Shown here: positions 14,003 to 39,566 of the stretch, in pieces
How positions within the stretch are numbered: the stretch's first letter is position 1
How the letters are laid out: every line of letters begins with the position of its first letter
Assembly (NCBI GenBank): GCA_017499595.2
Contig: CM038999.1
Coordinates: 2,976,001 to 3,040,000 of the forward strand
DNA from: Psilocybe cubensis
Taxonomy: Eukaryota
Length of the DNA stretch: 64,000 nt
Direction: 5' to 3'
Translations under genes and position numbers: made by a program
Notes under the pieces: model-generated
Seen by the model: the letters and a program-made list of their open reading frames with translations, nothing else
The model's database searches: none
Told to the model about the DNA's origin: nothing

Positions 14003-15277
14003 ATGTTCCCTCCATCCACAGCACAGGCTGGTGACGCTCCAATCCGTTCTACTGATAATGATGCTGCAGTTGCCCGACTCTCTGCAGTTCAGAAAGGATA
14101 TCTTAACGACCCCTATATCAAATATTTAGTTCCTCGTGCCCATTTGATATCTCCTCGTCCACCTCTTATCAACATTGGTACCTACGTCAGGAGCGCAGGG
14201 ATTGATGCCCTTGTAGATCAATGGATAGAGCTTTCAGCAAGGGGTGGTCTACGATGTCAAATCATCAGTCTCGGATCGGGCAGTGATACTAGGTTCTGGC
14301 GAATTGCGGCACGTTGAGTCCATGTCTGTACTCATAACCATCGAATTCATGCATCGTCCTTCGAGTAGGCGGGACAGATGAGAGACCATCTGAAAACATA
14401 TGTAGAAATTGATTTTCCTGAAATTACGACAAAGAAGGCAATGTCTATTCGCAAAAGTAAAGATCTTATGGTTGGTTTGGGCGATCCCCAGGCCGTGTCT
14501 TTGGGTACAAACGCGATGTAATCGTTTCTCTTTTTGTCGCCTAACTCCGGTCTTTCTAGGACAAGGCGGCACAGCCCTCCATTCAGAAAAATATCATCTT
14601 CTACCCGCGGACCTCCGATTGTCACCTTCAGATACTATTGAGCCAATGTTGTTCTCCGCAAACACGGAATATCCATCGACTTTGGATCCATCTTTGCCGA
14701 CTCTTCTTCTCTTTGAATGCGTTCTCGTTTATATGGAACCTCAAGCTTCCTCAAGGCTTCTCGAATATTTTATTAAGGTCTTTGAAAGAGCACAACGAGG
14801 CGTGTTAGGCTGCGTTATTTACGAAATGTTCGGTCTCAACGATGCATTCGGCCGTGTTATGATCAACAACTTAAAGGTGTTCCGTGACTTCCCATTTGTA
14901 AGGTGAATCTGATATCTTACAGGTTCTTAGGAACGTCATATTGCACTCCCTGGCGCCCTGCCTTACACGACTAAAGAAAGCCTTTCTAATCGGTTCCTCA
15001 GAGCGGGATTTATAGCCGCCGTAGCCGTTACACTCGATGAGATAAAAAAGGCCTACATTGCTAGGGAAGAGCTTGAAAGGTGATTTTAACTTATTCTGAT
15101 TTTGCACACCAAAGGTCTGACCAACTTCTGTGAAGAATATCTAAAGTAGAGTTTCTAGATGAAACCGAAGAGCTTGACCTCGTCTTGGCTCACTACGCTA
15201 TTTCATGGGGGTTGTTTTTAGGATCACGAGAACTCGGCTCACACTGGGGCCATTGGGGATTAACTAAGAAGTCTTAG
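14003..15277 (+). CDS. PPM1: Leucine carboxyl methyltransferase 1 (PP2A methyltransferase)
   Basis: IRSTDNDAAVARLSAVQKGYLNDP, PLINIGTYVR, QIISLGSGSDTR, EIDFPE, LFECVLVYM, DAFGRVMINNL, FLDETEELDLVLAHY; TAG 15275-15277. Confidence 0.93.
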
Positions 15278-15456: not shown

Positions 15457-16889
15457 CTAAACAACCTGGAATGCTGAGCCACCGGCTTTTGCGTCCAATT
15501 CAATGACCTCGTTAAGGCCTGAGTAAATTGTCAGGTACATTTAAAAAGTGAAAAGTGATGGGGACTAACCCATGACCTCGAAAAAGGATTTTGGGTCCAT
15601 TCCCTGCGCGGATGTGAAATCTGTCCCCGTCTTCTTCAGTGACCTCATTGCAGCCCTCACGGCGTGCACCATAGCCACAGACGAAACTAATGAGAAGACT
15701 AGAGGGGGGATAATGAGCTACAACTTAATATGATTTGAATATAAGAAACGAACTAATGATTTTAGCACCCATAGTTTCGGCTTCTTGGCTCGTAAAAGAA
15801 GGTGTGAGGCCACCAGAAATAACGTTTACCAGCACAGGTTTTGGTGCAAGGGCGGCGACAGTAGATCGAAGTAATTCTTCTGTTTTAACGCCTTCGATGA
15901 AACACACGTCGGCACCAGCATCAGCTGCGAGTTTAAGACGCGTAATAGCCTCCTCCATGCCAAGGACCTGGGCAGAGTCCGTTCTACCAATGATAACCTA
16001 AACAGCCATTCAGTGATCTTTCTTTAACAATAATCAGAAATATCACGTACGAAGTCGGAGCCTCCAGGTATCGAATCACGAGCAATAACCGCCGCCCTGA
16101 TTCTAGTTAAGAATTCCTCACGAGAAACAACCTGTTTTCCCATCAAGTGACCGCATCGTTTGGTTTGGACTTGGTCCTCGATATGCATGGCGGCCACACC
16201 AGCCTTCACATACTGTCTCACAGTACGAGCTACATTTATGGGACCGCCGAATCTACAAGCATTTTACCAACCGCTCGCTTGAATAGTTATGAGATCCTCG
16301 ATGCTTACCCTGTATCTGCATCGGCAATAACAGGCACCGTTGGGTCCAAGCTGCATACCATTTGAGCAGCCTAGTATTCCACTTCAGCTCACTATGAAAG
16401 CAATGTGTTATTTAAAGATATACCTGAACGAAATCGTTCATAGTAGCAATGGCAAGGTCAGGTTGTCCGAGGCGAGAAGCGGTTGTGGCAGCGCCACTTG
16501 GAGAGTCGAAAGTTAGATTGATGTTAGATTTAAAAACTTATTAAACTGATTCACCTCTGATACATGCAGTTAAATCCGGCTTCGAGGGCGCATCGAGCAC
16601 TAATACCATCGCATATACCTGGGGCGACCTTGGTGTCAAGAATTAGACACTGAAGTAACAATTACTCTAAGATAATTGGTAAAAATTTACTCACTACAAT
16701 ACCAGGCCTAGCAAGCATCTGTCGGAGACGAGTGGCAGGGTTCAAAGACAGAGGCCCTTCCAGGAAGTTTTTTGGATCCAGTCGTGCATTGTAGTATACA
16801 CCAGGTGCTGTTTCCACAACGGTGTCTGTTGATGTGCTCTTGGTGGAGGCAACATCCTTGCTGTTGGAGAAGTAATCGAGGCCAGGCAT
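15457..16889 (-). CDS. oahA: Oxaloacetate acetylhydrolase-type ICL/PEP-mutase family enzyme, paralog 1
   Basis: [53 protein letters not shown]; spliced GAKIIIFSLVS carries Ser (15691-15693) at the OAH marker position. Confidence 0.85.
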
Positions 16890-17053
16890 AATCGATGTCT
16901 GTAAGGTGTGGTGCCGAAGGGTGAGTTTGAAGGATGAGTGCAGAACACCAGTGAAGTAAGATTGGAGGCAGTATGTTCTCAAGCTTTAATACTCAAATGG
17001 TGGCTCATACTAGGACTCAGCCTACTTTGGGACATCAAAGAAAGGAAACTGAG

Positions 17054-17105
17054 CACGAGGCCGGAACGGCGCTAAGTGAGTATCTGTGTACCAACAAGTC
17101 TTGGC
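17054..17105. promoter_or_regulatory. Candidate cis-elements upstream of OAH paralog 1 shared with paralog 3
   Basis: CACGAGGCCGGAACGG (17054-17069) and ACAAGTCTTGGC (17094-17105) recur upstream of paralog 3 at 36661-36676 (1 mismatch) and 36368-36379 (exact). Confidence 0.45.
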
Positions 17106-18649
17106 TCCGCCCTGGAATCCCAGGATGAGAAATTACACCACCTGAAAGGAATTGAAATCTAAAGAAGGGGAGGCGGGTCTGCTGAGCCAAGTAAATGGAA
17201 CAACCATTAGAAAGCGACTAAAAATGGACGTCCAGTTTCCTTTCGGGGGTCTAATATTCCAAAGCACTCACAAAATGGGGAAATGTCTGAGAAAGGGCAT
17301 GTGTTGCAACATCGCTTTCCTCGATACCATGATATCTCTATCACAATGCCGACTATTTTCCCTGCGGATTCGCGGAGGTAGAGGGGCGGAACGATGAGTA
17401 GGAGATCACTCAGGGCCAGCGGAACGGAAAGGCAAAAGTGGTCATTCCGAAATCTGACTTGATTTTCTTACATCGGTGATGCCATTATCTACGGCCGAAC
17501 CATCTGGGCCGATTGACGTAGTGGGATGTCTTTCAGGGATCTTTGAACCACGGAATTCGGGAACTCGGTGGTGAGCATCCCAAGATGTCTTCGTTTCACT
17601 GAAATATGAAGAGGAACTAGCCTCTGCGAATGTCAAGGCTGTGCATATGCGTCGCGTTATCGAGGGCTTCTACTTCGTTTACGACTACGTGACAGAATAT
17701 TTCAAGCGTTAGATGATACCTAATATTAGAGCTCTTTACCTGTATCACCGAGGTGGCCTTGTCAAAATAGCCTTGTCTGAAGAATGCGGAGTGTTCTTCC
17801 GTGGAAAAAGGCAGCGTGTGGTCAACTCCACCCCCAGAAAGGTGGAAAGCGCCTTTAAGATGCGGTGGCTTTGGTGAAAGCCAGACATGTATGTGTATTT
17901 CCGATAATTCACGTCGAGAAGATACTGTAATAAAACCAGAGATCTACACAACGAAAAGGGATTAGTCTAGGAAGAAAAGCTGCAACGTTTTAATATGAAA
18001 GGTGGAGTCAGAGAGAAGATTCGGTCTGCGAGCAGACGAGTCACTCTGAAGCGCGAGTTCATTGAGTGAACAGCCTTCAGTCAAGAAAGTACTGGATGCC
18101 CAGTGATACGAATATAACATCTTGATGGATTTAGATAATAATATAACATATAACAGTACTTACAGGTTTGTAGGTGAATCGACCAACTAGGAAGCAGACA
18201 CTGGGTAGCTGCTACATGTTGGATGCTTCGCGCTGACTGAGGCATGGCGCACCGGGAATGAAAATCCCTCATTTCGGAATTTAATTACACTCGAAAAGGC
18301 AGCTTTGCCGCAATTACCTGCCATAAAAACTTGTTTTTACTTTAGCGTACTAGATTGCAGTTAAATACCTGAAAAACATTTGCCCACAGCAGGTAATAGT
18401 AAATTTTGTGGGGAAAAACGATTGGCCTTATGCATGCATACACGCTTTCCCAACAAAATTGAAAGAGTAAAAGACGAATAGCATTTGCGGATGTATTCTG
18501 GACGGGTTGTGTACGAGATGAGTCGTTGTGTTGACAGTTTGTATCAGAGGGTGCGTCCAAGCTCAACGTTAGCTGCCATGACCTTCGGAAGAAAAAAGTG
18601 CTTACGTAGTCAAACGGCTACGTGATTTGATCTGGTTCGACAAACTTTA

Positions 18650-18895
18650 CTAGTATGACCCGTCGCTACGCACCGTGGGGTGAGCGAAGCGAACCCACGT
18701 TCTTGCTTCGCTGACGGGCCAACAGACTGCCAACAGCTCGCGGGGGATGCACCCCTCGTTTGGTTCGATATGCCAAGTTCAAATGAAATTGACCCGCCAA
18801 GCACTGGCACTGCACTGGCCTGCACTACTACAGGCTACTACAGGTCGCTTACGTTCAGTTGACCTGGAAATAAGCAAGAACACATATACTAAGGA
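18650..18895 (-). mobile_element. Probable short non-autonomous Helitron
   Basis: On the minus strand it begins A|TCCTTAGTATAT and ends with GC-rich hairpins (CGTGGG-TTCGCTTCGCTCAC-CCCACG; imperfect GTGCGTAGCGACGGG) followed by TCATA-CTAG|T; no TSD; GC-richer than its flanks. The 5' boundary is uncertain (18895 or 18898). Confidence 0.5.
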
Positions 18896-19057
18896 TGATG
18901 AATGTCAGACGAGTTGCTGAAGGTTCGATACTTCAAGTTAGATTTAGTATTTCAAAAGTATGTAACGTGATGGTCTAATGTGAATGAGATTAATTACAAT
19001 GAAATATGAGAGGAACACAACAGGAAGGCGTCGATAACCACAGCAAGCAATGACCAT

Positions 19058-21239
19058 TCACAACTTATTTTTGAAAGCAGCAAGGCTAAGAGGTTGGTCT
19101 ATGTGGAAAGATCTAATTAGAAAGCTAGAATATCGAAGAAGAAAACCCCACTTACATGTTGTGTTGTACAAGTTGTCAGTCGGGGTTAGACCAGCGTGCG
19201 AGCGTAAGGCACTGGCATCAACCATCTCTGGAACGATTTCGCTGATGGAACGGGCCCCCAGAAGCCGCATGTTCATTTCAAACTCGTCCTGCAATACGGA
19301 TATCAGAAGGATGAAAACTCCGTTGACATACGACGTACCCGCAAGATTTCAATAGCCCTCTCGACACCCTCTTGTCCATAACTAGAGAAAGCGTACAAGA
19401 AACCGCGACCCACGCCAACTGCGGAGGCACCCAGAGCAATCGCCTTAAGTACATCGCTAGCACGACGAACACCACCATCTACAAAGACAGCGAAGTTGGG
19501 GTTAGGCCAAGGCCCTTTGGTTTTCAGCGCAGCAACGATGTCAACCAAATTCTCAAGGCCGGAGCGCGACGTATCAAGCTGTCGACCACCGTGGTTACTG
19601 AGAACGATTCCTTGGCATCCTGCTTCGTATGCTAGAATAGCATCTTCTGGAGTGGCAACACCTTTGAGAATGATGTGCATATTGGTAATGCTCCTAAACC
19701 ATGGGATATCTTTCCAGGAGAGACTGGGATCAATGAATGACTGAAAGCAATAAATGTGTTAGCTAGAATAATGCGCAATCGAAGGAAGTATTTTACGCTG
19801 ATGGCTCGGGCAACACCTTGATCCTTCTTGACATCCTTCTGATTTTCTTGGACCTTTGCACCAGCTCCGTCGTCGACAAACTTCATGCGCATATCCTTTT
19901 CACGACGTCCAAGTTGGGGTGCATCGACAGTAATAAAAAGTGCCTTAACACCTCGTTTCTCTGCGTGCTGTACATATTTCTTGGTAATTTCTCTGTCACG
20001 GTTTACATACCTGTGACGGGAATGTCAATATCTGCTTTGAAGTGCCTACGATGACCAACTCACAACTGAAGGAAGAGGGGTTGACCTGGAGTAGCAGCGT
20101 CAACAATTTCGTCGAAGGAACAAGAAGCGAGGGTTGGAATCTTATAACAAATCAGACCACCGACTTGGTTCAAAGGAATAATTAAGTTGCCTACCATCTG
20201 GATAACTCCATGTTTTGCGGCCGCCCTGGTGAGATTCAATTCACCGTCGGGGTGGCCAAGTTTACCAAGGGCGGTAGCGGACTAAGGGATATAATGTCAG
20301 AGAACATGCGAAACGTCGAGTACAATAAACTCGGCGACTTACGATGTAGATAGGGAGGGAAGATTTACATCCAAGGATGGTCGTCGACCAATCGACTGAA
20401 GTGACATCGCGCAATATTCTTGGCCGGAACCAGACTCTGCGCTGACCTCAGTCATGCGAAATTGTATGGGAAAATGAATTTTCTCACCTTTGGAAGGCAG
20501 CTCGATTCTCGCGGATGGTGATTTCATCATCTGATGCAGAGGAATAGTATGCCCAAGCCTTCGGAGGAAGTACGGCTTTTGCAACTGCCTATTGAGATGG
20601 GGCGTGTTAGCGAGGTATATATAACCAAGATTTTCAATAGTTTTGCATAAAAAAGACAGAAAGGTAGAATATGCATTTACCTCGAAGTCGTGCAAATTTA
20701 GGATCTCATCGAGAGGAGGCCTAGCGTCCATCAACGCTTGCCGTCTTTTATCTTCTTCTGTGACTTCTTTTATGGCTTTAACAATTGTGCTGGGATCAAT
20801 GGCGCCGATGCTATACCACACCATTACTAATTTGGTATCAAATCTTTAGGCAATAAATGTGCACGTACTGTTTCTCAATGGGCAAATTATCCGTGATAGC
20901 ATTAGGAGGGTGGATGGGCTCATAAGCTTCACTGCGAGGGGATAAGCATATTTTGAGCCTCTACAACAAGAGTTATGCTTACGTTGCATCCTTGCCCGCA
21001 TACTTCAAGATGATTTTGCTCCCTCCTGGGTGCTCTGCAAAATAAGTGTAAGTTTCACGTCGTTTACTGTCAACGATTGTAGATACCGTCTAAGAAGTCT
21101 GTGACGTCGTAGACCTTGCCTTCCAAGAAGTTAGCATTGGCAGATGATAGTAGAGGTGAAGAAACTTACTATGGACAATGATCCAGCAACTGTCGCGGCT
21201 GGCATGTTCGGCAAGAGTTTCTCCGGAGATGAAGGACAT
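19058..21239 (-). CDS. Flavocytochrome b2-type FMN alpha-hydroxyacid dehydrogenase (cytochrome b5 + FMN domain), glyoxylate dehydrogenase-like, paralog a
   Basis: MSFISGETLAEHASRDSCWIIVH...VYDVTDFLD-EHPGG; AWAYYSS, IPTLASCS, FLQLYVN, ITVDAPQLGRREKD, LKGV, SNHGGRQLD, DGGVRRASD; ends -FKNKL*. Confidence 0.88.
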
Positions 21240-24200
21240 TTTCTAGCTGGTTAGAGGGAAGAGCTTGAGTTATCCATAGTTCGCCAGGTAGATATACATA
21301 TTCGGGATCCAGGGAGGCCGACTCTTTCATGAGAAGCGTCGGGAACGACCACGACTCCTTTTTCGTTTCCATATTCCGTGGATCCGAAACGACGGAAAAA
21401 GAGCGAGTTGTAAAATGTGAAAGTCGAAATCGGAGTTAGAGAGGTCAGTTCGCATGTACGTATTTGACCATAAAACCCCTGTTCCGTTCTGTTTCCTCCG
21501 TTTATAATGATATATTATAAGCCACACATGGCCGCACCATTTGTAGATTGTGGAAAGGTAAACTCAATGTGGCACATAGATCGTCAAGTTGTGTGCTTTT
21601 ATTAATAAATCTACAACTTGTAAATGCTACTTCCTGGTGAAAATAATGAGAAATATAACCTACTTACCGGATGTTCCGAAGACCTCTTAATCGCCGATGT
21701 AAAGGGCAAATGTTCGTCCCTCAACGATTGCTCGTCCAAAGTTGTCTTTGATAAAGTACTAACCAAGCCGGACACTGGCAGAATCTCTACTAAGCTCAAG
21801 AAAATTCTTGGATTTGTTAAGCATTCGTAAAGATGGTGAGACACCGAGTGCACAACAAGCCTATCACAAACACGTATTACGGTTGAATATTACGGTTGAA
21901 CCCCTCTACACTCGTGTGGTGCACCATAGAATGAGTGAATTGTAGAAATCTGGGGAAGCCCAGGCGGATCATGATAAGATTGGGCTCATCAGAAACCAGC
22001 ACCCTTACGTAATCAATGGGCTTGGCGCCAAGAGCGGCCAAAATCCAGCTCGAAAAAAAAATCAAAAGTTATGTTGACGGAAAATGGTTTCAGACAAAAA
22101 GTTTAAAAAAAAAAAATTCATAAATGTGCATATACAATCCTTACTACTAGCCTTTATGCCCACAATAATAGAATTACACCTCAGAGGTCAAATTGTAGTC
22201 TCTGGAAGTCCATAATGAGTCTGAGAGGTATTACTTAGGCGTGACTTATTGTCACGTGTGGTCACGTGTACCATTATATAAGCGGCCAAAAGAACATTGT
22301 CAAATTTTCGAAAATCTCCCAAACTCGAGAAAACACCATTTCTGACGTGTTAGACTAAAAAAAAAGGAAAAAAATTAAAATCTTTATAACTTCTTGAGAT
22401 CAAAATTTTTTTGAAAAAAAAAACCACAGATGTGTTCAAAGAAGCATAACCTACATATCTGTGGTTCAAAAATGTAGAATAGTGTGAGTGCAGAAGGGTT
22501 GAAAAGGTTCGGAGGTAAGCCAACTTTTGCTTACCTAAGGGGGTGCTGGTTCCTGATGAGCCCAATCTTAGATTGAGTAGAGGGATATGCTACAGTCTTG
22601 GCAATGGTCTGTCAATGTAAATGTAATTGGTCAGGGTGTGCCAAGCCGGTATCAAGCATACGTAAGCACACGTAAATGGCCTAAAATAGACATTCTTACT
22701 ACTTTTGGAGAACTCATGTCTGCATTTGGCGTGAGCGCAATGATTTCCGCCAGGCCAAGGCAGGTGTAGAGAAAGCCATATATCTGGGGTCGGAATTCAA
22801 TGCATTTTTATGATACTAATCTACACCCAATGGCTTCAGGCCGACTCTGGCATCACACAGTTAAGTTGTATATTCATACACTAATTCGAACTGCTATAAA
22901 ATATTTTGCTTACAGCTCTTTAAAATAACCAATAGGAATCTCAGTCAACTTAAGTTAGAAAAAAAAAACTCGGCAAGTTGGTAGACCCTTCCATGTGAGT
23001 GGAGCATCTCCATTTGTAAACCAGATCATTAAAGTGGAGGTTTCTGTTCCATTAAGTCGTCGTGCTCGGAGAGTCGAGTATCTGATTCCCACCGCATGTA
23101 AGTACATTGAATTTAGATACCTCATCGTTACTCTCATTGCGCTGCATTATATCGTAGTCCTATCTGTTACATTCACATAAATAATTTTTTGTTCTCGCCG
23201 AACTGAACTGCATGCTACTTACGAGACAGCTCGGTAAGAAGTTGTCTATCAGCTCCCGGTCATTAAAATTTTTAATTACATGCCCAATTGTCTCAACGGC
23301 TGTCCGACACGTTTGTTGACCGCCGACGATGTCGACATATATGTTGATATAATAATCGTTTATTCACTTCAAATAAATATATGTGTTGGGTGATACGAAG
23401 AGCCATCAATGTCACTGTCAAGTGTCATACCTTACTATAACCTTGTCTCGAACCGGAAGTTTCTCCACGCCTGCCGAATCAATACTGTAGTCCACAATTG
23501 CTAGTGTCTGACGGCAGAAGATTCTCTGACTTACCTCGGAATTAGGTATGGTTCAAGGTAGAAAAGTGGTATATGGAGGATTGAAGAAAGTGTGTGGTCA
23601 ACAACCTGATTAAGTTGCGACGCACTGATCGCATCTTCGATTGATTTCCACCTGTGTACACTTATGTATGAAAATAATGGTGGCATTTGTTTAGTTTACT
23701 ATTTGCCGAGTCGTGAACCGGAGACTCCGAAAATTCATTGTAAGGGTTGCGTACATACGAAGCCGGTCTCCGCAGCGCTATAAATAGAAACATCTGTGCG
23801 CAAGTCCACTTTAACTCCGCTCCTACTCGCGAAAAAAATTCAACGGAGTCGACGGAGCAGACGATTTTTCTATCAAATTAGATCTTCCCGAGACGTCGTT
23901 TAAACTTAAACTTTCCGAGACCTTTTAGGGTAACGCCACATATCTTGATACAGGATGAAAAAGTGGCTGGGCGCCTAAACAACGATTTGACAGCGATAGC
24001 ATTCGTTCCATGTTGGCAGAATAAAGAAGCAAAAAACATGAACTAAACTTAGCCTTATTCGCTTTGAAAGTACATATAGGGGAAAGTGCGCTGTGGAGTT
24101 CGCTTCGTTCGGTTATTTTTTTTTGCACATTTCATTACTTCTCTCAGCTCATTCGTCTAGAGCTAGTGGCTGGTTCTCATCGCCGTGCTTAACCCACGTA

Positions 24201-24498
24201 CCCGACTCACACATGCAGGTCTATCTGTTACTGGCGAAAGTGGAACATTAGGACATAAAGCTTCTGATCATCTTTTTCCCACTTCATTTACCAAAGGCGG
24301 TTGTTCGACTCGGGTTACCGTGTATCTTCTTGGCAGCTTTCAAGTAAATCTGGTTTAACTCCCTTGTAGGATCTCGGTGGAGTTACGCGGCAACATATAA
24401 TAGAAGTTTTGCCATTATCGTGACGGCTCCAGCTACAGACTATATCTTTGGACGAGCTTGGAAGGCTTGGAAAGCACACTTGCCATCCTCTCGCAAAT

Positions 24499-25987
24499 AT
24501 GTCAAGTATTTTTCGAGGTCTTTGGGCGTCGCTTCGCTTCATTTTGTCACCACTTACATGGCTGTTTTCTATCACTACTGCGGAAGAGGTTCGCCGGGCA
24601 ATCGAACCCCCGCCAAAGATCAATTCGGTCCAGAAAGTTGTTGATAGCAGCGAAAACAAAAAGTATTACAACCCGCGACTGGATCCGAAAAACTATCTAG
24701 CGGGCCCCTTATCACTGAACCCTGCCACACGTCTACGACAACTGTTGGCGAGGCCAGGAATAATAGTATGCCCCAGCCTGCTCGTTAATTCATTTGAGTT
24801 ACTTACATTTATAGGTTGCACCCGGTATTTGTGACGGCATTAGCGCTCGTTGCGCAATCGAAGCAGGATTCGAATGTCTCTACCAAAGGCGAGACAATTT
24901 CCATACATTGAACGAAGAAATAGTTCTAATGTCCTAAATTACAGTGGCGCGGCTACCACAGCGTCTAGGATGGGTCAACCTGATCTGGCTATTGCCACGC
25001 TGAACGATTTTGTGGAAGTAAGTGATCATTACACTATGATGATTATCTTGACTCACATTCTTCGTTATCTGTAAGGCGGGAGAGATGGTTTCCAGCATTA
25101 ATCCTACCATACCTGTGATTGCGGACGCCGACACTGGGTAAATGCATTCATTATATCCATTTAACGAGATAGTAATTTCTCTTGCCAGATTTGGAGGTCC
25201 TGCCAATGTCGCTCGGACGGTGAAGCAATACATTCAAGCTGGTATTGCTGGGTTACACATCGAAGATCAAGTACAAACAAAACGTTGTGGTCATCTCATG
25301 GGCAAACAAGTGGTTTCTAGGGAGGAATTCCTCACTCGAATCCGGGCTGCAGTCATTGCTCGCGACTCCATTCCAGGTGGCTCTGATTTCGTCAGTACAA
25401 CTTCGAGAGGAAATAAAATAAACCGCTGATTGTACCACCCACCCAGGTTATTATCGGAAGAACGGACTCTGCGCAAGTATTGGGTATGGAAGAGGCTATC
25501 ACACGTTTAAAGCTTGCCGCCGACGCTGGTGCCGACGTTTGTTTCATTGAAGGAGTCAAAACCGAAGAGCTGCTTCGTTCGACTGTTGCCGCTCTCGCTC
25601 CCAAGCCCGTCTTAGTGAACGTAATCTCCGGCGGACTTACGCCATCATTCACTTCTTCTGAAGCTGAGAGGATGGGAGCCAAAATTATCAGTATGTTAGC
25701 TCTACCAGCGCTTATCGACCTTGTCTCATGAATTCTCCAGTATTTTCACTGGTGTCATGTGTAGCGATGGTACACGGCGTGCGAGCAGCTATGAAATCGC
25801 TTAAAGTAACAGGGACGGACTTCAGTACTGCAAAAGGGATGGATCCCAAATCATTTTTCGAAGTCATGGGTATGTCATTGAGTGACTTCTTCTATTTCGT
25901 GTGGCGTTACTCACACCTGATTTAGGACTGGATGAGGTCGTAAGTTTGGATGCAAAGGCTGGAGGGACGGCCTTTAAATTGGTGTAG
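24499..25987 (+). CDS. oahA: Oxaloacetate acetylhydrolase-type enzyme, paralog 2, with amphipathic N-terminal extension
   Basis: MSSIFRGLWASLRFILSPLTWLFS...[45 protein letters not shown] marker Ser at 25746-25748; one GC-AG intron 24889-24944; TAG 25985-25987. Confidence 0.85.
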
Positions 25988-26479
25988 GATATGTAACATA
26001 TAATGAGATATGCATATATCATGTAGACGTTCACTCACATCGTATTTTTAGACCTCATTCTCATGTATAGATATAACCAAATCATACTCATAGCGCTCAA
26101 GATACCGGAATCCACAATTTGCTGCCATTCGTTAGGATTATTCCAGTGGCATCTAGCCTTTTCTATGAATGGTAGATGATGAGATTCTGTATTTGGGAAA
26201 CGCGGGGCCCCGACGCAGCCCTCAAAAAACGCGTCAAACCGGACTATGAATCAATCACGCTACCGTGGACCAACCTTGACGTCATCAGCTGTAACCGGTT
26301 GGCCGGCACAGAGAGCGGCTCTGCGGCCCGGCTTAATCATTATTCCGACTCAACAACTTGCTTTGCAATTGTTCTCACTACACCCAGCATCCCTTTGGAC
26401 CAACCCTACCAAACGTATACCTAAATCTTGACAATTTGCTCAACTTAAATAAAGGACTGTACTGAACACAAATCTGATA

Positions 26480-28972
26480 ATGGCATCTCAGAAGATGATC
26501 TCCGGAAAGGAAGTTGCAACACACAACAGCAGGGAAAGTTGTTGGATAATTGTCCATGGTATCGTCGGTTTCAGCCCAGGTTGGAAATCCTTTGCGAAAA
26601 TTAACAATATGTAATGCAGGAAAGATCTACGATGTTACGGAATTCTTGGATGGTGTGTAATATAGCTACTTATAAATTTCTTTTTGTACTAAGGGGTTGT
26701 ATTTGTAGAGCATCCAGGTGCGCTACCGACGCGCTGCCATGCTATCAGTAACGAGTAATCTGACGCATGTTCAACAAGGTGGCAGCAAAATAATCTTGAA
26801 ATATGCTGGAAAGGATGCAACGTGCGTACTGCAAGCTTCAATAGAATTATCCCCCCCATGACCTTCCCGAGTATCTCAGGCAGGAATACGATCCTATACA
26901 CCCGCCAGACGCCATTGAAAATAACCTTCCTCCCGAAAAACAGTAAATTTTACCACACTATACCTAACGACTCAAAGCTGAGGAATTTTCGCAAGTTTAG
27001 GTCCAGTTGAACCAAACACCGTTGAAAAAGTAGAAGTCCGCATAACCGATGAAGAGATGGCCCGCCAGGAACGCATGTCAAACAGACCACCTCTAGATGA
27101 GATATTAAACCTTCACGATTTTGAGGTGAGACCTAACAGGGGACTTCGCTCAGTCTGATGTAATCCTTTAACTAGTCCATTGCACGACAAGTGATGCCCG
27201 AGAAAGCATGGGCATATTATTCTTCAGCAGCTGATGACGAGATCACACATAGGGAAAATCACTCAGCGTATCACAGGTAAATCAAGGGGTTATTTACTGC
27301 ATCCGAAAAGGCACTTACCTGCGAACTAACCTAGAATCTGGTTCCGACCCCAAATTCTTGTTGACGTTACGAAGGTTGATTGGTCGACTAGAATTTTGGG
27401 TCACAAGTCATCCATGCCCGTGTACATAGTACGTCCTGTCGATTCAGTTTTGAACATGCGGTTCTTGTTCGAGTTGATGCTTCTTTCTCGTTTTAGACAG
27501 CAACAGCTCTCGGGAAGCTTGGACACCCTGACGGCGAACTCAATCTTACGCGAGCTGCAGCTCGACATAATGTTATCCAGATGGTAAATCAACATACTTA
27601 TACTTCCTCCCATGCCTACTGTTAACGTTTCTATCGAAGATTCCGACCTTAGCGTCTTGCTCTTTTGACGAAATTGTGGATGCTGCTCAGCCTGGACAAG
27701 TACAATTTCTGCAATTGTATGTAAGCTCACAAGCATTATGCCGAATATCTAACTCAAATCCGACTAGATACGTTAACAAAGATAGAAATATCACCAAACG
27801 CCTGGTACAACATGCTGAGCAGCGGGGTATAAAAGGTCTGTTTATTACAGTTGATGCGCCCCAACTTGGCCGGCGTGAAAAGGTGCCTTACACCGCAACG
27901 CAGCTCATAATACATATGCCTGATAAAACATTTTAAAAAATGCAGGACATGAGGATGAAATTCACGGCGGAAGACCCTTCAGAAGTAGTCAAGTCAGGGT
28001 CAGACGGCATTGACAGGTCGCAAGGGGCTGCACGAGCTATCAGTGTTTGTTACTCAGCAGCATACCAAATTCAAAGCTGACCATGGATGCATGCTTACAC
28101 AGTCGTTTATAGACCCTGGTCTGCAGTGGAGTGACCTAGATTGGTTTAAAAGCATCACCAAAAGTATTCATTGTTGTTGTCTAAAACATATACCAAACTA
28201 ATGAAGCTGTCAGTGCCTCTCATTCTCAAAGGCGTTCAGCGGTGGGAGGAAAGTATTTTGCTCTATCATTCGATATTTATGACCTATTTTTGATGTTAAA
28301 CTCTATCAGGATGCTTTGAAGGCATACGACTTGGGCCTTGCTGGGGTTGTTTTATCGAACCACGGGGGCCGACAATTAGATTTTGCACGCTCTGGCGTTG
28401 AGGTACTCGTTGAAGTTGTCACAAATTTGAAACAAAAGCGTGGCCTTTCTTTCCCAAATGACAAATTTCAACTGTTCGTGGACGGAGGTGTACGACGTGC
28501 TACCGATGTTATCAAAGCCATTGCTCTGGGTGCAACAGCAGGTGCGAACCATATTCCTAGTCAGTCAATTATTCTGCTAAAAGTATGGTCTGTAGTGGGG
28601 ATTGGGCGGCCTTTCATCTATGCTTTCTCCTCTTACGGAGAACAAGGTGTCGATAAAGCGTTGAAGATTTTACAAGTATGTCACCCATATCTTCATTAAT
28701 AAGACCTTCATAGATTTTGATTTATCGCAAAGGATGAATTTGAAATGAACATGCGTTTAATTGGAGCTAAATCCATCCAAGATATCACCCCAGACATGGT
28801 CGATGCTACAAATATCAGTTCACATATCGCGTCAACACCCACAGACAGGCTTTACGATAGTAACTGTAAGGAGCCCACTTATTTCAAGCTCATCGCATAT
28901 ATTGATGCGACCTTGTTACTAGATGAAAGCATGCAACACGCCAAATTGCGGGAAATCAAATCAAAGATGTAA
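26480..28972 (+). CDS. Flavocytochrome b2-type dehydrogenase, glyoxylate dehydrogenase-like, paralog b
   Basis: MASQKMISGKEVATHNSRESCWIIVHGKIYDVTEFLDEHPGG; AWAYYSS, IPTLASCS, ITVDAPQLGRREK, SNHGGRQLD, DGGVRRATD; ends -IKSKM*. An intact frame requires a GA-AG intron at 28249-28309. Confidence 0.85.
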
Positions 28973-29876
28973 ATTTGCCAACACCGATGGGGGCAATGAT
29001 GATCTCGTATGGGTGCATGGACTTTGTGTTTATAGGATCCAATATCTACCTAAGAAATCTTGAATGGAAACAAATTCAACTTCAAATATATACTACATAA
29101 GTACTATGAAATGGAGAAATAACCTCAATCCAGTATCTCCATATGTATCGAAATTGAACTTGGTCGAAGGTAACTATTCGGGTTTCATTCTTTTCTTCAA
29201 GTTATGCACTTGGTTTTGTAACGATCTCTATCAGCTGATCCAGCTCCTTTTGAAATCCGCTTCAATAAACGAGCGCCTCAACTGGCAACCTAACTCATAA
29301 AGTCCGGCCATCCGTATTTTTATGAGCTAATACAGACAAACAAGTTCGGATGGATGGATGCTTCTCGAGCCCTTACTTCCGCGATATCCGTGCATGTTCG
29401 AACCACCCTTGACCGTTTAGGGTTCTTCTTAATCGTCTTTGGTTACTTGATTTGTCTACAATCGTACCCGCCATGCTGGCGAGAGTTTGTCCATGACTTC
29501 CTATAGTCAGGTCTACCATAACCAACCTCACGAACAAGAGTGATTGCGCCAATATTTGTGTAACACAGCACAGGCGTTTCTCGACAAAGCACAAGGACAT
29601 ACTTTGGGACCTGGGGTGGATTTGTCCTTGAATTTAACATATCCCCTTCAAGCGCCTCGTTGAAAGAGAAGGTTCTTCATATCTCGTCAGATGGTTGGAA
29701 AACCGGAGTACTGAAAATATCCATCCTAAACTTCCTTCATTTCCGGGTTGGGCAATAAAACCCGCGATCGTGTCGCTATATCTTCAGCCTATAACTCAGT
29801 GAGGCTCTCCTTACGCCATCCATCGCTCATTCCGGGTCGCTGTAGACACCACGCATCCTTGCGCCCCTCATCCAGG

Positions 29877-32439
29877 ATGTCAGAAAAAGGCAAAAACGAT
29901 ACAGCTGCGGCCGGGAGCAAGGAAGGGGTGGATTTTTTCAACAGAATTGCTCTTCCAAAAGTTGGATCCCCTGAACGAATATCGGCTGAGCGTGCGTTGG
30001 TTCGGAAACTGGATATGCGCCTTCTGCCTACCATATTTGTTATATTCATCATGAACTATATTGATGTAGGTGTCCTTTTCCCTCTGGCGACGATATAGAT
30101 GTTGAAAGAGCTTCAAAAAAGCGGAACGGCGTCACGACCGCAAGATTGAAAGGATTGCAGAAAGACCTCCACCTGAGCGGTATGTGGCAGCTTGGCCTGA
30201 AATCAATCAAGCCTGACAAAATCGGGATACTGCCGTCTGAACTTCAGATGTTCAATACCAGACAGTTATCGCCATATTGTTTGTCTCTTACTGTCCTGCA
30301 CAAATACCATCTAATATGGTGTGTCTTATAATTTATTTTTCTGGAGCATTTCATTCATACGACAATCCTATTCTTAAAATTCAGATCATCAACAAAGTCA
30401 ATCGGTGAGCTTGCCCAAATATCATCTTCGGTGCAAATTTTGTTGATTATTAAAGGAAGACCTTCTTTGTACATTGGTGTATGCACGTGTCTATGGGGCC
30501 TAACAAGTCTTCTCACTGGGGTATTTCCGTTTCCTGACGCGCCTCCTTTTCGTTGATTTTTTTGCCCAATAAGATCACCAAAAATTTTGCGGGGATCGTG
30601 GCTTGCCGTATATTTATAGGCCTTCCGGAATCTGTTTTTTATCCTGGTGCCATCTATGTTCTATCTAGATGGTACACAAAGAAAGTACGCGTCAATGATC
30701 CATATTTTCGCCTTCTATTCATCGAATCCTCCTAGGAATTGGCGTTTCGATCCGCCTTTTTATACGTTGGACTACTTATCTCAAACGCTTTTGGCACGGT
30801 AAACACTATCAAAAAAATTTTGAGACGACCACTGACATATTCGTTGTAGTTATTGGCTGCTGGCATCCTTGCAAATATGGAAGGCAAACGTGGTATTCGC
30901 GCCTGGAGATGGTAATGTTGAAATACTGATCTTGTCGTATCTAGATTTTCATTAACTTGCTCAGGTTATTCTTTATTGAGGTACCAAATATCTGCCTTTG
31001 GTCCCTCGCAAACTAAATCGTTCCACAAGGGTGCTCTCACAATATGTGTTGGCCTTATTAGCATGTTGGTGTCTTCTCTCTTGTCCTGCCAATATACATT
31101 AGTAACATCTGATGGGATACATCATATAGGTGGTCACTACCGGATTATGTCAGTACTTCTGCTCATCAATCTCTGAACTTTCATCTAAAGTATGCAGCCT
31201 CACAATACGAGGTGGATGTCCAGCCTGGAGTGTAAACTTGCGCAAGTTCGGCTCTCTGAGGATGTTGGCGAAGCTGATATGGATAATGGAACTGATTCGT
31301 AAGCCCTATTTCTCTCACAGGAGTCGTCTCTCAATATTAGCTAGTCCTATGCATGGATTATTTTTGGCTCTCAAAGATCCAAAAGTTGCCCTGTTTTCAA
31401 TCATGACAACAGCGCAACTTCTGGGATTGAGCTTTTCACAGTATTTCCCTACGTAATCGTGGTCTTTCCATTGAACGTACATTTGTTTGCTGATCGTAAT
31501 ACAGCCTTGCACAGACACTGGGATTCAATACCACAAACACACTCCTTCTAGCTTCGTAAGTAGTATTATTTTGAACCTTTATTTCCGATTTGTTGATGGA
31601 TTTAGACCCCCGTGGATTTTAGCATCAATATTATGTTTTTGGAATGCATGGCACGCAGGTAACTTTCATTATCTCGCTTGTATGCTCTGCTGCAGTGATG
31701 ATTTTCTGCCTCAGATCGAACAGGCGAACGCTTTTTCCACATGGTCGGTTGGTGGGCAAGCGTAGTGATAGGATATATCATCGCGTTTTCGACCAAATCA
31801 ATAGCTGTACGTTACATCTCGCTTTTCTTCATGGCAGGTGGTTACGCTGGTCAGTGAATATGTTTCACTTCTTTTCAACACACATATATATATTTCCAGG
31901 CTCTGCTATAACCCTAGTTTGGGTGGCAAATACATTTCCACGTCCACCAGCGTAAGTATTTAGCTCTATGATAGAACGCTACACATAACGACTTTTTGGC
32001 TAGAAAAAGGGCAGCCGCAATCGGCCTAGTTAACGGAATTGGAAATGTTGGAATGGTGTAAGACTTCCTTTTTTAAAATCTTAATGCTGTATCCTCAAGT
32101 TTTATACCTAAGAATGGGCTCATACACCTGGAAAGTTGTCTGGTCTCCTAATTACTACCCATCGATGGCCGTATCTCTCGGGGCGCTGGTGATTAGCGCT
32201 TTACTGGCCTTGGGTTAGTTTCCCACTGCCTTTTTAATTGCGAATCACTGACCTGCGAATCACTGTTCCCGATAGTGATCCGTCAAATACTTGTACATGA
32301 GAACAGGAGGTTGGATGCAGATGGGAAAGCTACTACTGAAGATATGGACCGAACTCGCGTTCAAGAAGCCGCAAAATTGGAAGGTATCACTTTCGAACAG
32401 GCTATGCAAAGGAGAAAAGGATACCGGTACTTGTATTGA
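29877..32439 (+). CDS. MFS transporter, anion:cation symporter (ACS; TNA1/DAL5-like) family
   Basis: ERALVRKLDMRLLP...NYIDR, QIPSN, GLPESVFYPG..YVLSRWY, ELAFRSA, AWRWLFFIEG, LPDYP, DRTGER, KRAAAIG, C-terminal GYRYLY*; hand-spliced through 19 GT-AG introns with an intact frame. Confidence 0.9.
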
Positions 32440-32739
32440 GCCCCTGTTATAAGAAAATCAGCCCATTTTGCATCTGTCGGAGACATGCCAAGAAACACCG
32501 TGTCGCCCGGACTTCTTCAAGTGACTTCGAAAAAAAGCAAAGCCTCTTTGGCCAAAACTTTATCATATATTTTCTATCATAATAACACAAATACATGCTT
32601 CTAGATCCGTGTGCATCGCAGAATTTTTGCACAACTGTTTGGATCGCAGTACCCGAATCCTGATTGGGTCCTAGCGACATCACATTCCAGACTCTCGACC
32701 CTATAAAAGCCCTCGCAGGAGTTTTCATCTTGTAAAAGT

Positions 32740-34479
32740 ATGCCAGGAATACCTTCTCAGAAGGACTTTACTGTTGCAATTGTCGGTGGGGGGATTTGCG
32801 GCTTGTCTTGGTGAATTTATTAGTGATACAACTGGGTTTATTGCTCATGTTATATATCTTTACCATTTAGTGCCATCATCTTATCTCGAGCTGGGTTAAA
32901 TGTGAAGCTTTTTGAGCGAACGGTATGTTTTTTTTTTGTTATTGGCATGAATATATTTTCAACTGTATTGCAGTCCAGATTTGAAGAAATCGGTGCTGGG
33001 ATAGGTTTAGGCCCCAATGCTGTCCGTGCATTAAAATTAATGGGTTTACTGGAGCCTATTCTTGAGGCAGTCAACGTTGCCGATTTAACAACACAAACGA
33101 GCATTCAGTTTGTTCAGGGAACAGGAACTCACGAACTAATCTATGACCTTCCTGTGACTTGAATCATCCCTTTTCCACAAAATACCGTTACTAGTGCTAA
33201 CAAGACATTCAATAGGATGTTAATCCGAATGATAAAGGAAATTTGGAAAAAACAGGATTTGGAATATACAGGTAAAGGTATTGACGCGTTTGCTAATCCT
33301 CAATTCTCACTGCATCATCACTGGCAGGCCAACTTTTTTAGACGCGCTCTTGCCTCTCATCGATCCAAACGTCGTCTGCTTTCTGAAGCGCCTGACATTG
33401 TTGACAACATCGAAGTCCGGAGCATATCGACTTCATTTTTCTGATAACACAACATACGATGCAGACGTTGTAATCGGAGCTGATGGTATTAAAAGTACTG
33501 TACGCAACTCTGTAGCGGTACCAGATGAGGGTCTGCTGGCATTCTCCAATAGGTACATATATCGTGACAGGGTCTCGATAGAAGACCTCAAAGCACTTGG
33601 AGTTAAGGGAGAGGTTTACTCTCGTTTACAGGCTTGGCTAGGCAATGGAAAGGTTCGACAACCCACCTTTGAAAGAAAAACCGACATTAACATATCTTTA
33701 GCAAATAGTGACGTTTCCGGTCAATGACCACACCATTGTATGTTTATGCATTGATACCTGATACACAGAATAGGACGTTCGTCGTTGATAATGGTTTCTT
33801 CAGCTCAGCATCACTGCAGCAGTAAATGTTCACGCTCCAGGGATGCCTCCTTCTCCAGCAATACCCGCTCCGTGGGTACAGGATGTCGATCAAGAGGAGT
33901 TGCTCAAAGCTTATGAACCTGAGTTTGGGGGCGACATTCTAGCAATTATTCGGCTAATGACAAGGCCAAAGAGATGGGCCCTGCATATGATATATCCTCC
34001 TCTCAAGACCTATGTCAAGGACAGGATTGCATTAATTGGAGACGCTGTAAAGTATTTTTATCGCATTTATATTGTGCAGTCACTGATGTATGTCATTGAA
34101 GGCTCATGCAATGGTTCCATTCATAGGTGCTGGAGCCGGGCAAGGCTTTGAAGATGTTTACGCCATCTGTCGTATTTTATCCCATCCCAAGGTTACAAAA
34201 AGCAGGCTGTCCGTGAGTAGCAGTTGGATATAATGGCTTTCCTGTTTTTATTATTTTTCAAAGGATGCATTTGTCATGTACGACAACTATAGGCGACCCC
34301 TTGCTAATAAAACTTTGGAACAGAGCTTGGTGGCTGGAGATAATTTAGAGTGCTTCATTCCTGGAGGAGAGGATGTAACGAGACAGCGGATAAGGATGAT
34401 GTACGAAGATCAGTGGATACAGAATCTCTGGCATCATGATTTTGATGAGGAGGTCACAAAGATTTTAGAAGAATTTTGA
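32740..34479 (+). CDS. FAD-dependent monooxygenase (group A, salicylate hydroxylase-like)
   Basis: VAIVGGGICGL (GxGxxG), EIGAGIGLGPNA, VIGADGIKSTVR (DG motif), IALIGDA-AHAMVPFIGAGAGQGFED (GD motif); TATA-like TATAAAA at 32702. Confidence 0.9.
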
Positions 34480-34692
34480 AGTCCATTATAGGGTATACAA
34501 CGAAGATGTGTCATGCGTACGTAGTCTAGACACATGTCCTAATGGTATATGGAGGTACAATGTGAAGGGTGATATGTATATACTGACTCTAATAGCTAAT
34601 AACTAAAAAAGGTCAACCTCATCTCAAAATGACGCTGGCTTCACCAAGCATAACTCAGTAATAGCCTCAAGTATCGTCCATGGACGACGAAA

Positions 34693-36211
34693 TCATACGA
34701 CATTGAAGGCTGATCCACCAGCCTTTGCATCAAGTTCGATTACTTCATTCAAACCTGTTAAGAACGAGAATTTAGAAGTGCACATATAAGAAAAAGAAAA
34801 AACGTGTTACCCATCACTTCGAAGAATGACTTAGGGTCCATTCCTTTAGCTGAGGTAAAGTCTGTACCCGTTTTCTTCAAAGATTGCATGGCAGCGCGGA
34901 CTGAGTGGACCATTGCGACGCATGATACCAGCGAGAATACTGCATGAACTGTTAGCATATGTATGTTATACTTGGAACAATATACCAACTGATGATTTTA
35001 GCACCAAGTTTTTCGGCTTCATGATATGTAAATGATGGTGTCAGACCACCAGATATCACGTTTACGAGTACCTATTTGGCGAAGACGAATGTTAGTTACA
35101 AAGGAAGATTAGCGGCAATCGGAATACGTACGGGTTTTGGAGCCAGTGCAGCGACAGTCGATTGTAGCAACTCCGCCGTCTTGACTCCTTCGATGAAGCA
35201 AACATCAGCGCCTGCATCTGCTGCCAGTTTGAGCCTAGTGATCGCCTCTTCCATTCCCAACACCTGAGCGGAGTCGGTTCGGCCAATGATGACCTACGTA
35301 GAATTGCTTAGTTTTGCCTATGAACATAGGAGGTAGAGTAGGTGCGTACAAAATCAGAACCTCCTGGGATAGAATCGCGAGCAATGACAGCTGCCCTGAT
35401 CCTCGTTAAAAATTCCTCACGAGAGACGACTTGCTTGCCCATCAAATGGCCGCAGCGCTTAGTCTGAACTTGATCTTCGATGTGCATGCCAGCGACTCCT
35501 GCACTGATATATTGTCTCACAGTGCGAGCGACATTCACGGGACCGCCGAACCTGTATCAAATTATCAGTAAGATTCAACCAGTATTATATAGGATGGGTC
35601 AAACGGTGCATACCCAGTGTCGGCATCTGCAATGACTGGTATTGAAGGATTAATGCTGCACACCATCTGTGCCGCCTAGGAAAGCTTGTCAATTGCAAAA
35701 CAAAGATAATGATATTAGTATAGACGCACTCCAACGAAGTCATTGAGGGTCGCGATGGCAAGGTCTGGTTGTCCCAAACGAGACGCTGTAGTTGCCGCAC
35801 CACTAAAACGAAGGTCGGTATATGCGAGGAGGAACTTTAGGCCGCGACAAAAGGTATACCTTTGATACATGCAATCGAAACCGGCTTCGATTGCGCATCG
35901 GGCGCTGATACCATCACAAATTCCGGGAGCAACCTGCAAGACGACTTCGCTTTGACACCTGAACAAAGGGAAATTTTACATTGGTGACGTACAACTATTC
36001 CGGGTCGGGCTAACATCTGTCGCAACCGAGTGGCGGCGTTCACAGATAGCGGTCCTTCCAAATAGTTTTTTGGGTCCAGACGAGCATTATAGTAGACGCC
36101 AGGACGAGATGGCCCGTCATTAAGATCCTCACGCGCCTCTGGACGAGACTCTGAGCGAGAATTGCTTGGTGGGGCAGTCTCGGTTTTCGAGTAAAATTCA
36201 AGGCCTGGCAT
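34693..36211 (-). CDS. oahA: Oxaloacetate acetylhydrolase-type enzyme, paralog 3
   Basis: MPGLEFYS...[53 protein letters not shown] marker Ser at 34932-34934; an extra intron at 35072-35131 absent from paralogs 1 and 2. Confidence 0.85.
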
Positions 36212-36367
36212 TGCTGGATAGCAGAGAAGGGGGCTGAAGAGGAACTAGGTGTGGCTCGAATTTCGATGAGGTTGTAGCCCAAAGTCAGCCAATTTAAAGC
36301 AAAAGCGTGTAATTCAAAACTTCAAAAGAAGAACTGTCGAAAATCCAAAATTGCATAGCCGGAAAAC

Positions 36368-36676
36368 ACAAGTCTTGGCAGTTTTCCATCTCAATGAACT
36401 ATTTTTGTCACTTGACATTTATACACATACCGTGGTCTCGACATGCGCTATATGGAGATGGAAAACTCAACAAGTCTGTGTAAAAACATTGGTGAGCGTT
36501 ATGACATTGCGAAGAAGTTTTTTCGGTGAAAACCATGTTATGCCGTTATTTTGTAGTTCTAGTGAAGAAGCGCACGCCAGTACGGGTCGTGATGAGTGCA
36601 ATTTTGACTTTGCCAAGAGGTTGAATCATAGAGGAAGTAAAAGAATGGGTCCTGGAGAAACACGAGGCCCGAACGG
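36368..36676. promoter_or_regulatory. Candidate cis-elements upstream of OAH paralog 3 shared with paralog 1
   Basis: ACAAGTCTTGGC at 36368-36379 and CACGAGGCCCGAACGG at 36661-36676. Confidence 0.45.
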
Positions 36677-37108
36677 TGGAGTCAATACAGACGTAAAACT
36701 ATTAGTTCCCACTTGGTATATCGTGGGTCGTGTAAGCACAAGGATAGGTAGTGGACACTGCAGTACGACTCACCATTTGTTTTTTTTTGGAAGGGAGAAC
36801 TGATACGTTGAAGCAGTTCCTTGCGGCGCTAGAGCGGATTTTCTCTCCAGCGCAGCACGCAGCAATCTGTTTGTAGGCTTTTCAATCGGCCTGAAGAATT
36901 TATACCACTGAAGAGAAAATTGTAGTGGAGTGGTCGAACAATCTGGAAATGACTACACATTACTGTCAGTAAACAGACACGGAAGAAAGAATCCATGCAC
37001 TTAATTCAGATAGATTCTGTCGGGAAATTGAGAGCAAAATTTTAATCATTCAATTATTCAATGTTATGTAAGAATCAGAATCGTGCGATAGCTTGTGAGA
37101 ACGATTAA

Positions 37109-39401: not shown

Positions 39402-39566
39402 CGTCAATACCAACGCGAGTTAACAGTTAAAACACGAAAGGTCGTGACCGAGTAAGCACAGCAAGTACTCCAAACACAGTAAGTATTACCACATTCAGCA
39501 TGCGGCGGCGGCGAAACTTTGTCATTTGCTTCCTCATCCCATCACAGTCCTATTCCCGGTTTGTTC

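Follow-up and report, generated by a model that had tools for sequence, protein, structure and literature searches.

In a 64,000-nucleotide window of Psilocybe cubensis contig CM038999.1, about 21 kb (15457-36211) carried three genes of oxaloacetate acetylhydrolase (OAH)-type lyases (OAH1-3) and two genes of flavocytochrome b2-type enzymes (FCB2a and FCB2b). We estimate a probability of about 60% that this core represents, in expanded form, an old gene linkage conserved in Agaricomycetes, which joins the genes for the two enzymes that catalyse the terminal steps of oxalate formation. Oxalate is central to basidiomycete wood decay, metal chelation, pH control and mineral weathering, and the two routes leading to it, one cytosolic and one peroxisomal, are usually treated separately. 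In the mechanism we propose, the cytosolic OAH enzymes (OAH1-3) would convert oxaloacetate to oxalate and acetate, and the peroxisomal flavocytochrome b2-type dehydrogenases (FCB2a, FCB2b), from the clade that carries the annotation glyoxylate dehydrogenase (GLOXDH), would convert glyoxylate to oxalate. The linkage would serve the co-regulation of both outlets of a coupled tricarboxylic acid (TCA)/glyoxylate “oxalate fermentation”, a scheme reportedly described for Fomitopsis palustris, and the Psilocybe lineage would have amplified the OAH-FCB2 pair to 3 + 2 copies. An MFS transporter gene and a flavin monooxygenase (FMO) gene would have been inserted between FCB2b and OAH3, their products first taking up and then hydroxylating an aromatic or heteroaromatic carboxylate. 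The initial annotation had counted all seven genes into one dedicated oxalate locus joining both routes. The OAH markers, the FCB2 architecture and the conserved linkage, the last a strong support, make such a locus plausible for OAH and FCB2, whereas the membership of MFS and FMO did not hold up.

That two families contribute five paralogs to 21 kb would be far beyond what chance could produce. We read the linkage in other fungi from the contig assignments, locus tags and gene IDs in the match tables, which held the best 120 matches for OAH and the best 120 for FCB2. In each of the 21 species common to both lists, OAH and FCB2 were found on contigs of equal size, which we took as a shared contig, and some of these contigs measured no more than 36 and 65 kb. 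Consecutive locus tags were carried by the pair in Cerrena zonata (QCA50_005240/41), Hermanssonia centrifuga (EW026_g4476/77) and Taiwanofungus camphoratus (AcW1_003475/76); in Leucocoprinus leucothites the tags differed by two and in Agrocybe chaxingu by three. Together with three species placed by published IDs, this gave eight species of Agaricales and Polyporales in which the tags or gene IDs were consecutive or nearly so. A 985-aa gene model from Dentipellis fragilis contained the Pfam domains PEP_mutase, Cyt-b5 and FMN_dh together, which implies that OAH and FCB2 are adjacent on the same strand in Russulales as well. The initial annotation had named a neighbourhood conserved in no related genome as one ground for giving up its proposal; the OAH-FCB2 linkage extended over many genera from no fewer than three orders, and the surroundings of MFS and FMO were not conserved. 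It is about an even chance that OAH and FCB2 form an ancient pair predating the Agaricales/Polyporales/Russulales split, in two paralogous versions (the FCB2a type and the OAH-to-FCB2b tandem type), kept by selection for co-regulated oxalate production.

Multiple OAH copies were also seen close together in other genera. In Hypholoma, three OAH genes and the FCB2a ortholog were located on one scaffold. The OAH tags of Panaeolus cyanescens were 005971, 005973 and 005977, of which the second is a 777-aa double model (P0121, CVT24_005973); it probably represents two merged tandem OAH genes, which would give four OAH copies in seven tags. Agrocybe pediades carried OAH genes under tags 000894 and 000899.

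The pair also appears in published expression tables, and the available parts of three papers on other species suggest that its members co-vary. In Trametes versicolor, XM_008045015 and XM_008045016 have adjacent IDs and were both lower on wood (PMC10512323). The adjacent Irpex lacteus genes 0811.538 and 0811.539 were both induced ~30-fold at the same time point (PMC5833081), and both FPRL280_17_38 and FPRL280_17_43 of Rhodonia placenta went up in the oxidative phase (PMC10512373). In the accessible text of these sources, the adjacent OAH and FCB2 IDs stand without comment. The initial annotation knew of no description of the two routes as one physical cluster, and none of the OAH-FCB2 linkage turned up in the searchable literature; subscription journals and preprint supplements were outside our reach, and a prior description there is possible. 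The words cluster, adjacent and locus were absent from the available text of a 2024 oxalate review (PMC11045627), and in the part available of a paper on oxalate genes “cluster” denotes expression clusters (PMC10512373).

The gene models were obtained by spliced protein-to-genome alignment of homologs using our own script, with GT/GC-AG introns permitted. All seven models were complete from ATG to stop, with zero internal stops, and they bore out the order and strands given initially, OAH1(-), FCB2a(-), OAH2(+), FCB2b(+), MFS(+), FMO(+), OAH3(-), together with the boundaries, as position 15457 is the first base of the OAH1 stop codon and 36211 the first base of the OAH3 ATG. Moreover, Pfam was run over 135 stop-to-stop open reading frame (ORF) pieces of at least 60 aa from the region 15320-36321. 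PEP_mutase/ICL matched six pieces at three loci, and FMN_dh matched eight pieces at two loci. MFS_1 and FAD_binding_3 each matched one piece, at 30538-30732(+) and 33236-33724(+), respectively, both under the curated cut-off.

The lyase genes were modelled at 15457-16889(-) for OAH1 (8 exons, 346 aa), 24499-25987(+) for OAH2 (8 exons, 370 aa) and 34693-36211(-) for OAH3 (9 exons, 354 aa). PF13714 and PF00463 matched exon pieces at all three loci and also the deposited P. cubensis protein P0123, which is 100% identical to OAH2 over 370 aa. OAH3 was 100% identical over 354 aligned columns to P0166, a deposited P. cubensis model that retains an intron and is located on the same 4.33-Mb contig as P0123. 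The three proteins were 93-95% identical to their Psilocybe cyanescens counterparts, with 95% between OAH1 and CVT25_014504. All three contained the TKRCGH loop, aligned with the same motif in the structures of Cryphonectria parasitica OAH (3lye) and Aspergillus niger 2,3-dimethylmalate lyase (3fa3); we take the K-[KR]-C-G-H loop to be the gating loop with the catalytic cysteine. They also shared a serine (in “IIIFS”) at a marker column where 3lye has Ser and 3fa3 has Pro, a column which presumably corresponds to residue 281 in A. niger numbering. Ser occupied this column in all 88 pattern-matching OAH sequences among the best 120 matches, the remaining 32 falling outside the local pattern. 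Serine at “position 281” is given as a marker of oxalate-producing OAH, via Joosten et al., in the accessible part of the source (PMC3256194). As far as can be judged from sequence, the KRCGH loop and the serine marker point to the OAH type for all three lyases, as initially annotated.

The three lyase genes are old paralogs, functional and under very strong purifying selection, because their core differs at synonymous sites only and each has its own orthologs. An 84-codon core encoded an identical protein stretch in all three, with 49-56 synonymous and 0 non-synonymous differences per pair. Recent gene conversion, suspected from the identical stretch, was rejected, as the DNA of this core was 77-79% identical among OAH1-3 and the differences were all synonymous. 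An 81-row tree placed each paralog with its own orthologs in P. cyanescens and other genera of the family group; it comprised 77 hand-picked sequences from the 120 matches, the N-terminal half of the Dentipellis model and the three window proteins, with fragments, unnamed rows and one double-length model left out. OAH2 carried a hydrophobic N-terminal extension of ~30 aa (24499-24600), which it has in common with P. cyanescens and which was absent from OAH1, OAH3 and most relatives. Different extensions, also hydrophobic, were present in OAH2 relatives from Pholiota conissans and P. cf. subviscida. The OAH2 extension may serve to anchor the protein in a membrane or to target it.

The first flavocytochrome gene, FCB2a, was located at 19058-21239(-) (13 exons, 498 aa), and the second, divergent one, FCB2b, at 26480-28972(+) (18 exons, ~501 aa). 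FMN_dh matched exon pieces at both loci, both models open with the b5 “HPGG” region, and the FCB2a ortholog P0001 showed the Pfam pair Cyt-b5 and FMN_dh. FCB2a was 91-93% identical to proteins from Hebeloma, Hypholoma and Agrocybe, and 66% identical to FCB2b. The FCB2 tree (76 rows) was built from 73 hand-picked sequences of the 120 matches, the C-terminal half of the Dentipellis model and the two window proteins. FCB2a fell inside a large clade whose branching agrees with the species tree; among its members are proteins of Fomitopsis schrenkii and F. serialis, which carry the source annotation glyoxylate dehydrogenase. FCB2b belonged to a different clade; it paired with the FCB2 half of the Dentipellis fragilis OAH + FCB2 model, with a support of 100, and the two next joined proteins from Clavulina, Tulasnella and Serendipita. 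Since FCB2b groups with the Dentipellis half, apart from the FCB2a clade, there are two old FCB2 clades, both linked to OAH.

The C-termini of both enzymes, NKL in FCB2a and SKM in FCB2b, resemble peroxisomal targeting signal 1 (PTS1), and a peroxisomal location is predicted for both. The x-[K/R]-[L/M] C-terminus was found in 95 of 104 full-length FCB2 relatives (SKL in 40, AKL in 30). These ends fit the location given in the available text of the 2024 review, where GLOXDH is assigned to peroxisomes and OAH to the cytoplasm (PMC11045627). The initial description of two “glyoxylate dehydrogenase-like” enzymes was thus sustained in part. The Cyt-b5 and FMN_dh domains, the PTS1-like ends and the position of FCB2a in the GLOXDH-annotated clade agree with it, whereas FCB2b lies elsewhere in the tree and the active-site motifs are equal to those of yeast Cyb2.

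Several observations weigh against the core being a conserved pair of oxalate-forming enzymes, some of them concerning the linkage and others the enzymes. The three OAH orthologs of P. cyanescens were on three different contigs, so that the full 3 + 2 layout is perhaps not kept even within the genus. Furthermore, no 8-10-mer was shared by at least four of the five OAH/FCB2 upstream regions, and 7-mers occurred at the level of shuffled sequences. The failure to find a shared upstream motif would also suit a neighbourhood without functional meaning, that is, a slowly rearranging ancestral block with local tandem duplication. This alternative, which we consider improbable, could also draw on another old linkage in the region, seen in a Tulasnella model that joins Gryzun and FMN_dh and in the Gryzun gene at 53.6-55.9 kb of the window. 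It explains neither why precisely these two families have stayed adjacent in Agaricales, Polyporales and Russulales, nor the linkage of both FCB2 clades to OAH, nor the co-regulation suggested by three published data sets, as far as their available parts go (PMC10512323, PMC5833081, PMC10512373).

With regard to the lyases, P0123 (identical to OAH2) scored slightly better on 2,3-dimethylmalate lyase 3fa3 (300.5 bits) than on OAH 3lye (286 bits), in both cases over the entire catalytic domain. With regard to the flavocytochromes, the orthology of FCB2a to GLOXDH would follow from annotation names and from the position in a tree that is without the F. palustris sequence. P0001 aligned end to end with yeast flavocytochrome b2 (480 bits), and its motifs that we take to be substrate-contacting were the same as in the yeast L-lactate cytochrome c reductase. 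We must also note that the gene model of FCB2b includes a donor site that looks defective. Positions 28249-28250 read GA (28249-28254 GAAAGT, expected GTAAGT), and within 28214-28310 the in-frame DNA past “...KG” reads VQRWE, as in homologs. The sole canonical in-frame solution, a GT at 28234, loses five residues beside the conserved Lys of “LKG”. A mutation in the strain, an error in sequencing and a rare GA-AG intron are all possible explanations of this anomaly.

The kinetic data bear on the same question. According to the accessible part of one study, recombinant F. palustris OAH acts on oxaloacetate and GLOXDH on glyoxylate, GLOXDH has been characterised for one enzyme only, and Vmax/Km on glyoxylate is 0.17 for F. 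palustris GLOXDH and 0.15 for yeast Cyb2 (PMC9485241). Because these values are about equal, glyoxylate may be a side substrate of the FCB2 clade. The FCB2 sequences do not reveal substrate specificity; Cyb2, too, oxidises glyoxylate. It is conceivable, though rather unlikely, that the FCB2 proteins are peroxisomal 2-hydroxy-acid (L-lactate, glycolate or L-malate):acceptor oxidoreductases. The linked enzymes would then work in series or towards another end product, serving acetate/acetyl-CoA supply or redox balance, for example in fruiting, and oxalate would be a by-product. The active-site motifs shared with Cyb2 and the similarly low efficiencies of both enzymes on glyoxylate speak for this option. 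So does the developmental expression of oxaloacetase genes in 11 mushroom species, for which acetate/acetyl-CoA was proposed as the wanted product, according to the available portion of the report (PMC10282164). On the other hand, the purified F. palustris enzyme received its name from its activity on glyoxylate, as stated in the accessible text of two sources (PMC11045627, PMC9485241), and, in what is available of two others, both genes of the pair were induced under conditions of ligninolytic or oxidative decay, in which a need for oxalate is assumed (PMC5833081, PMC10512373). We prefer the reading of OAH and FCB2 as two linked oxalate-forming enzymes.

The transporter gene was located at 29877-32439(+) (20 exons, 507 aa) and is putatively of the anion:cation symporter (ACS), or Dal5/DgoT-like, type. 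The FMO gene at 32740-34479(+) (9 exons, 429 aa) encodes a group A FAD monooxygenase resembling salicylate hydroxylase; the two are co-oriented with a gap of 300 bp. MFS was at most ~75% identical to its best relatives among the matches found, as against the 93-95% between the OAH proteins and P. cyanescens. One of them, P0243 (75% identical to the window MFS), matched MFS_1, and its best match in the PDB was the D-galactonate:H+ symporter DgoT (6e9n, E=3.3e-9), an assignment made via the homolog. DgoT is, to our understanding, an ACS member, and we take the family to consist of uptake symporters. The “export” role in the initial annotation is therefore unsupported. An oxalate exporter assisted by the FMO is an improbable reading of the two genes. 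Among 1.8 billion representatives, FMO exceeded 50% identity only to a 120-aa fragment. Its full-length relatives, named salicylate hydroxylase or FAD-binding protein, were ~42% identical at most (41-42% to P0312 and P0338), and P0338 matched FAD_binding_3 and the salicylate hydroxylase 6bz5 (260 bits). The resemblance of the window proteins to salicylate hydroxylase-type FMOs (6bz5, 5evy) and to ACS transporters (DgoT 6e9n) is one of family, via homologs 42% and 75% identical to them, respectively.

The placement of the transporter was compared in the eight species with both an MFS match and an OAH match. MFS was near OAH in one of them, P. cyanescens (tags 006301 and 006304). In three, including P. 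cf. subviscida with tags ~350 apart, MFS and OAH were on one large contig, and in the remaining four (Galerina, Hypholoma, Panaeolus cyanescens and Flammula) MFS was on another contig than OAH. Given this poor conservation, the rarity of MFS near OAH and the likeness of FMO to salicylate hydroxylase, the two genes could not be retained as members of an oxalate cluster. They probably lie outside the conserved core and most likely form a separate, lineage-specific uptake-plus-hydroxylation module for an aromatic or heteroaromatic carboxylate, which would be unrelated to oxalate.

Alternatively, as the initial annotation also considered, the seven genes might act as a single cluster in the breakdown of a hydroxy or aromatic acid, with uptake by MFS, hydroxylation by FMO, oxidation by FCB2 and C-C cleavage by the lyases. 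The FMO relatives match salicylate hydroxylase and 6-hydroxynicotinate monooxygenase, the best PDB match of MFS is an organic-anion uptake symporter, and the P. cubensis records label the lyases “2,3-dimethylmalate lyase”, all in keeping with such a pathway. We nevertheless hold it to be very improbable. The lyases have the serine of OAH and lack the proline of dimethylmalate lyase, the OAH-FCB2 linkage occurs in many species without a sign of MFS, which in the four genera listed above sits on another contig, and the core genes change far more slowly than FMO and MFS. A specific variant, nicotinate catabolism by a Tna1-like MFS, a NicC-like FMO and dimethylmalate lyase, was dropped because the lyases carry the OAH serine and the FMO relative scored far better on salicylate hydroxylase (260 bits) than on NicC (100 bits).

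The lyases of the window share with known OAH enzymes (A. niger OahA, C. parasitica 3lye, F. palustris FpOAH) the PEP mutase/ICL fold family, the KRCGH motif and the marker serine, with 286 bits to 3lye. The A. niger 2,3-dimethylmalate lyase 3fa3 was the top-scoring solved structure (300.5 bits) but has Pro in place of the Ser in the window proteins. Unlike known OAH, three old paralogs are present at one locus, OAH2 alone of the three has a hydrophobic extension, and the activity in the window is predicted. The Cyt-b5 + FMN_dh architecture of the window FCB2 proteins is that of F. palustris FpGLOXDH and yeast Cyb2 (1fcb), and their PTS1-like ends fit the peroxisome. Yeast Cyb2 has a mitochondrial presequence, and the window proteins, in contrast, are without one. 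They further differ from FpGLOXDH and Cyb2 in being two paralogs, 66% identical, in separate old clades. A dedicated and physically linked pair for oxalate synthesis is likewise found in the obcA/obcB operon of Burkholderia glumae, as described in the available text of the 2024 review (PMC11045627). That operon differs in being bacterial and polycistronic, in its unrelated enzymes, and in providing one route rather than two parallel ones.

A conserved physical link argues that both oxalate routes are regulated as one unit, and it lends context-based support to the part assigned to the GLOXDH clade, which is poorly characterised. If our reading is true, the genomic context would provide, for the first time, independent evidence for a role of the entire GLOXDH clade in oxalate metabolism. 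The core would then also represent an unremarked primary-metabolism gene cluster of mushroom-forming fungi, even though its members stand side by side in transcriptome tables. At 21 kb for five genes, the core is compact enough to be targeted by knockouts or expression experiments. A neighbour is not the same as a cluster member, and this caution applies to MFS and FMO, which look like an unrelated insertion.

Within the locus, OAH1 and FCB2a are separated by a spacer of 2.2 kb (16890-19057) without a recognisable gene, and FCB2a and OAH2 by a divergent spacer of 3.3 kb (21240-24498); both are long for this genome. The gap from OAH2 to FCB2b, on the same strand, is 493 bp. None of the 86 ORF pieces of at least 40 aa in the spacers at 16.9-19.05, 21.25-24.5 and 28.97-29.88 kb (97 listed minus 11 overlapping modelled genes) reached the Pfam cut-off, and neither did any ORF piece in the spacer at 36.2-38.2 kb. 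The spacers contained no Rfam family and no tRNA, and their codon-usage score, computed with our own measure, was low. The initial statement that no unrelated gene lies between the seven holds in this weak sense, in which orphan genes or non-coding RNAs are possible. A 177-aa ORF at 36270-36800 was rejected as a gene, as it had no Pfam match and its translation is not protein-like. The FCB2a/OAH2 spacer, where GC drops to 0.40 at 22-24 kb, contains two inverted repeats of 30 nt each (21975-22004 and 22541-22570) that are 97% complementary and 536 nt apart. The resulting 596-bp unit is most simply explained as a small non-autonomous transposon resembling a miniature inverted-repeat transposable element (MITE).

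The window is intron-rich fungal DNA with ~44% GC. The housekeeping flanks named initially were recognised by Pfam. On the left, a leucine carboxyl methyltransferase gene (LCM/PPM1-type, 13970-14903(+)) was seen as exon pieces only, with LCM matching two ORF pieces. On the right, an exon of a TMEM70-family gene (38829-39419(-)) is followed by DCTN5 (40095-40388(+)). Farther right, the window carries genes of HSP70, a phosphotransferase-family (APH) protein, an alpha/beta hydrolase, a glutathione S-transferase (GST) and a Gryzun/TRAPPC11-like protein. The last of these genes, at 53659-55907(-), lies ~25 kb from FCB2b. In Tulasnella, a model of 1694 aa (P0110) merges Gryzun with FMN_dh domains, a hint of a very old linkage of this wider block. 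Among 119 ORF pieces of at least 80 aa outside the cluster, Pfam detected no further oxalate-related families.

A match to NAD-GH (PF10712) at 41980-43377(+) is opposite a clear HSP70 gene at 41998-44012(-); since matches of this family to the HSP70 antisense strand are known, we do not count it as a second gene. Long open frames of 306-509 aa without a Pfam match (E<=1e-4 or 1e-3) at 51781-53307(-), 12605-13831(-), 11623-12651(-) and 5675-6592(+) represent unexplained genes outside the cluster. Finally, in the spacer between OAH3 and TMEM70, translations of two ORFs on opposite strands, 37099-37305(+) and 38044-38256(-), contain a similar peptide, RPRSVTLL.SVRLG, with Gly-Pro and Thr-Trp dipeptide runs close by, which suggests that this spacer holds an inverted, degenerate repeat.

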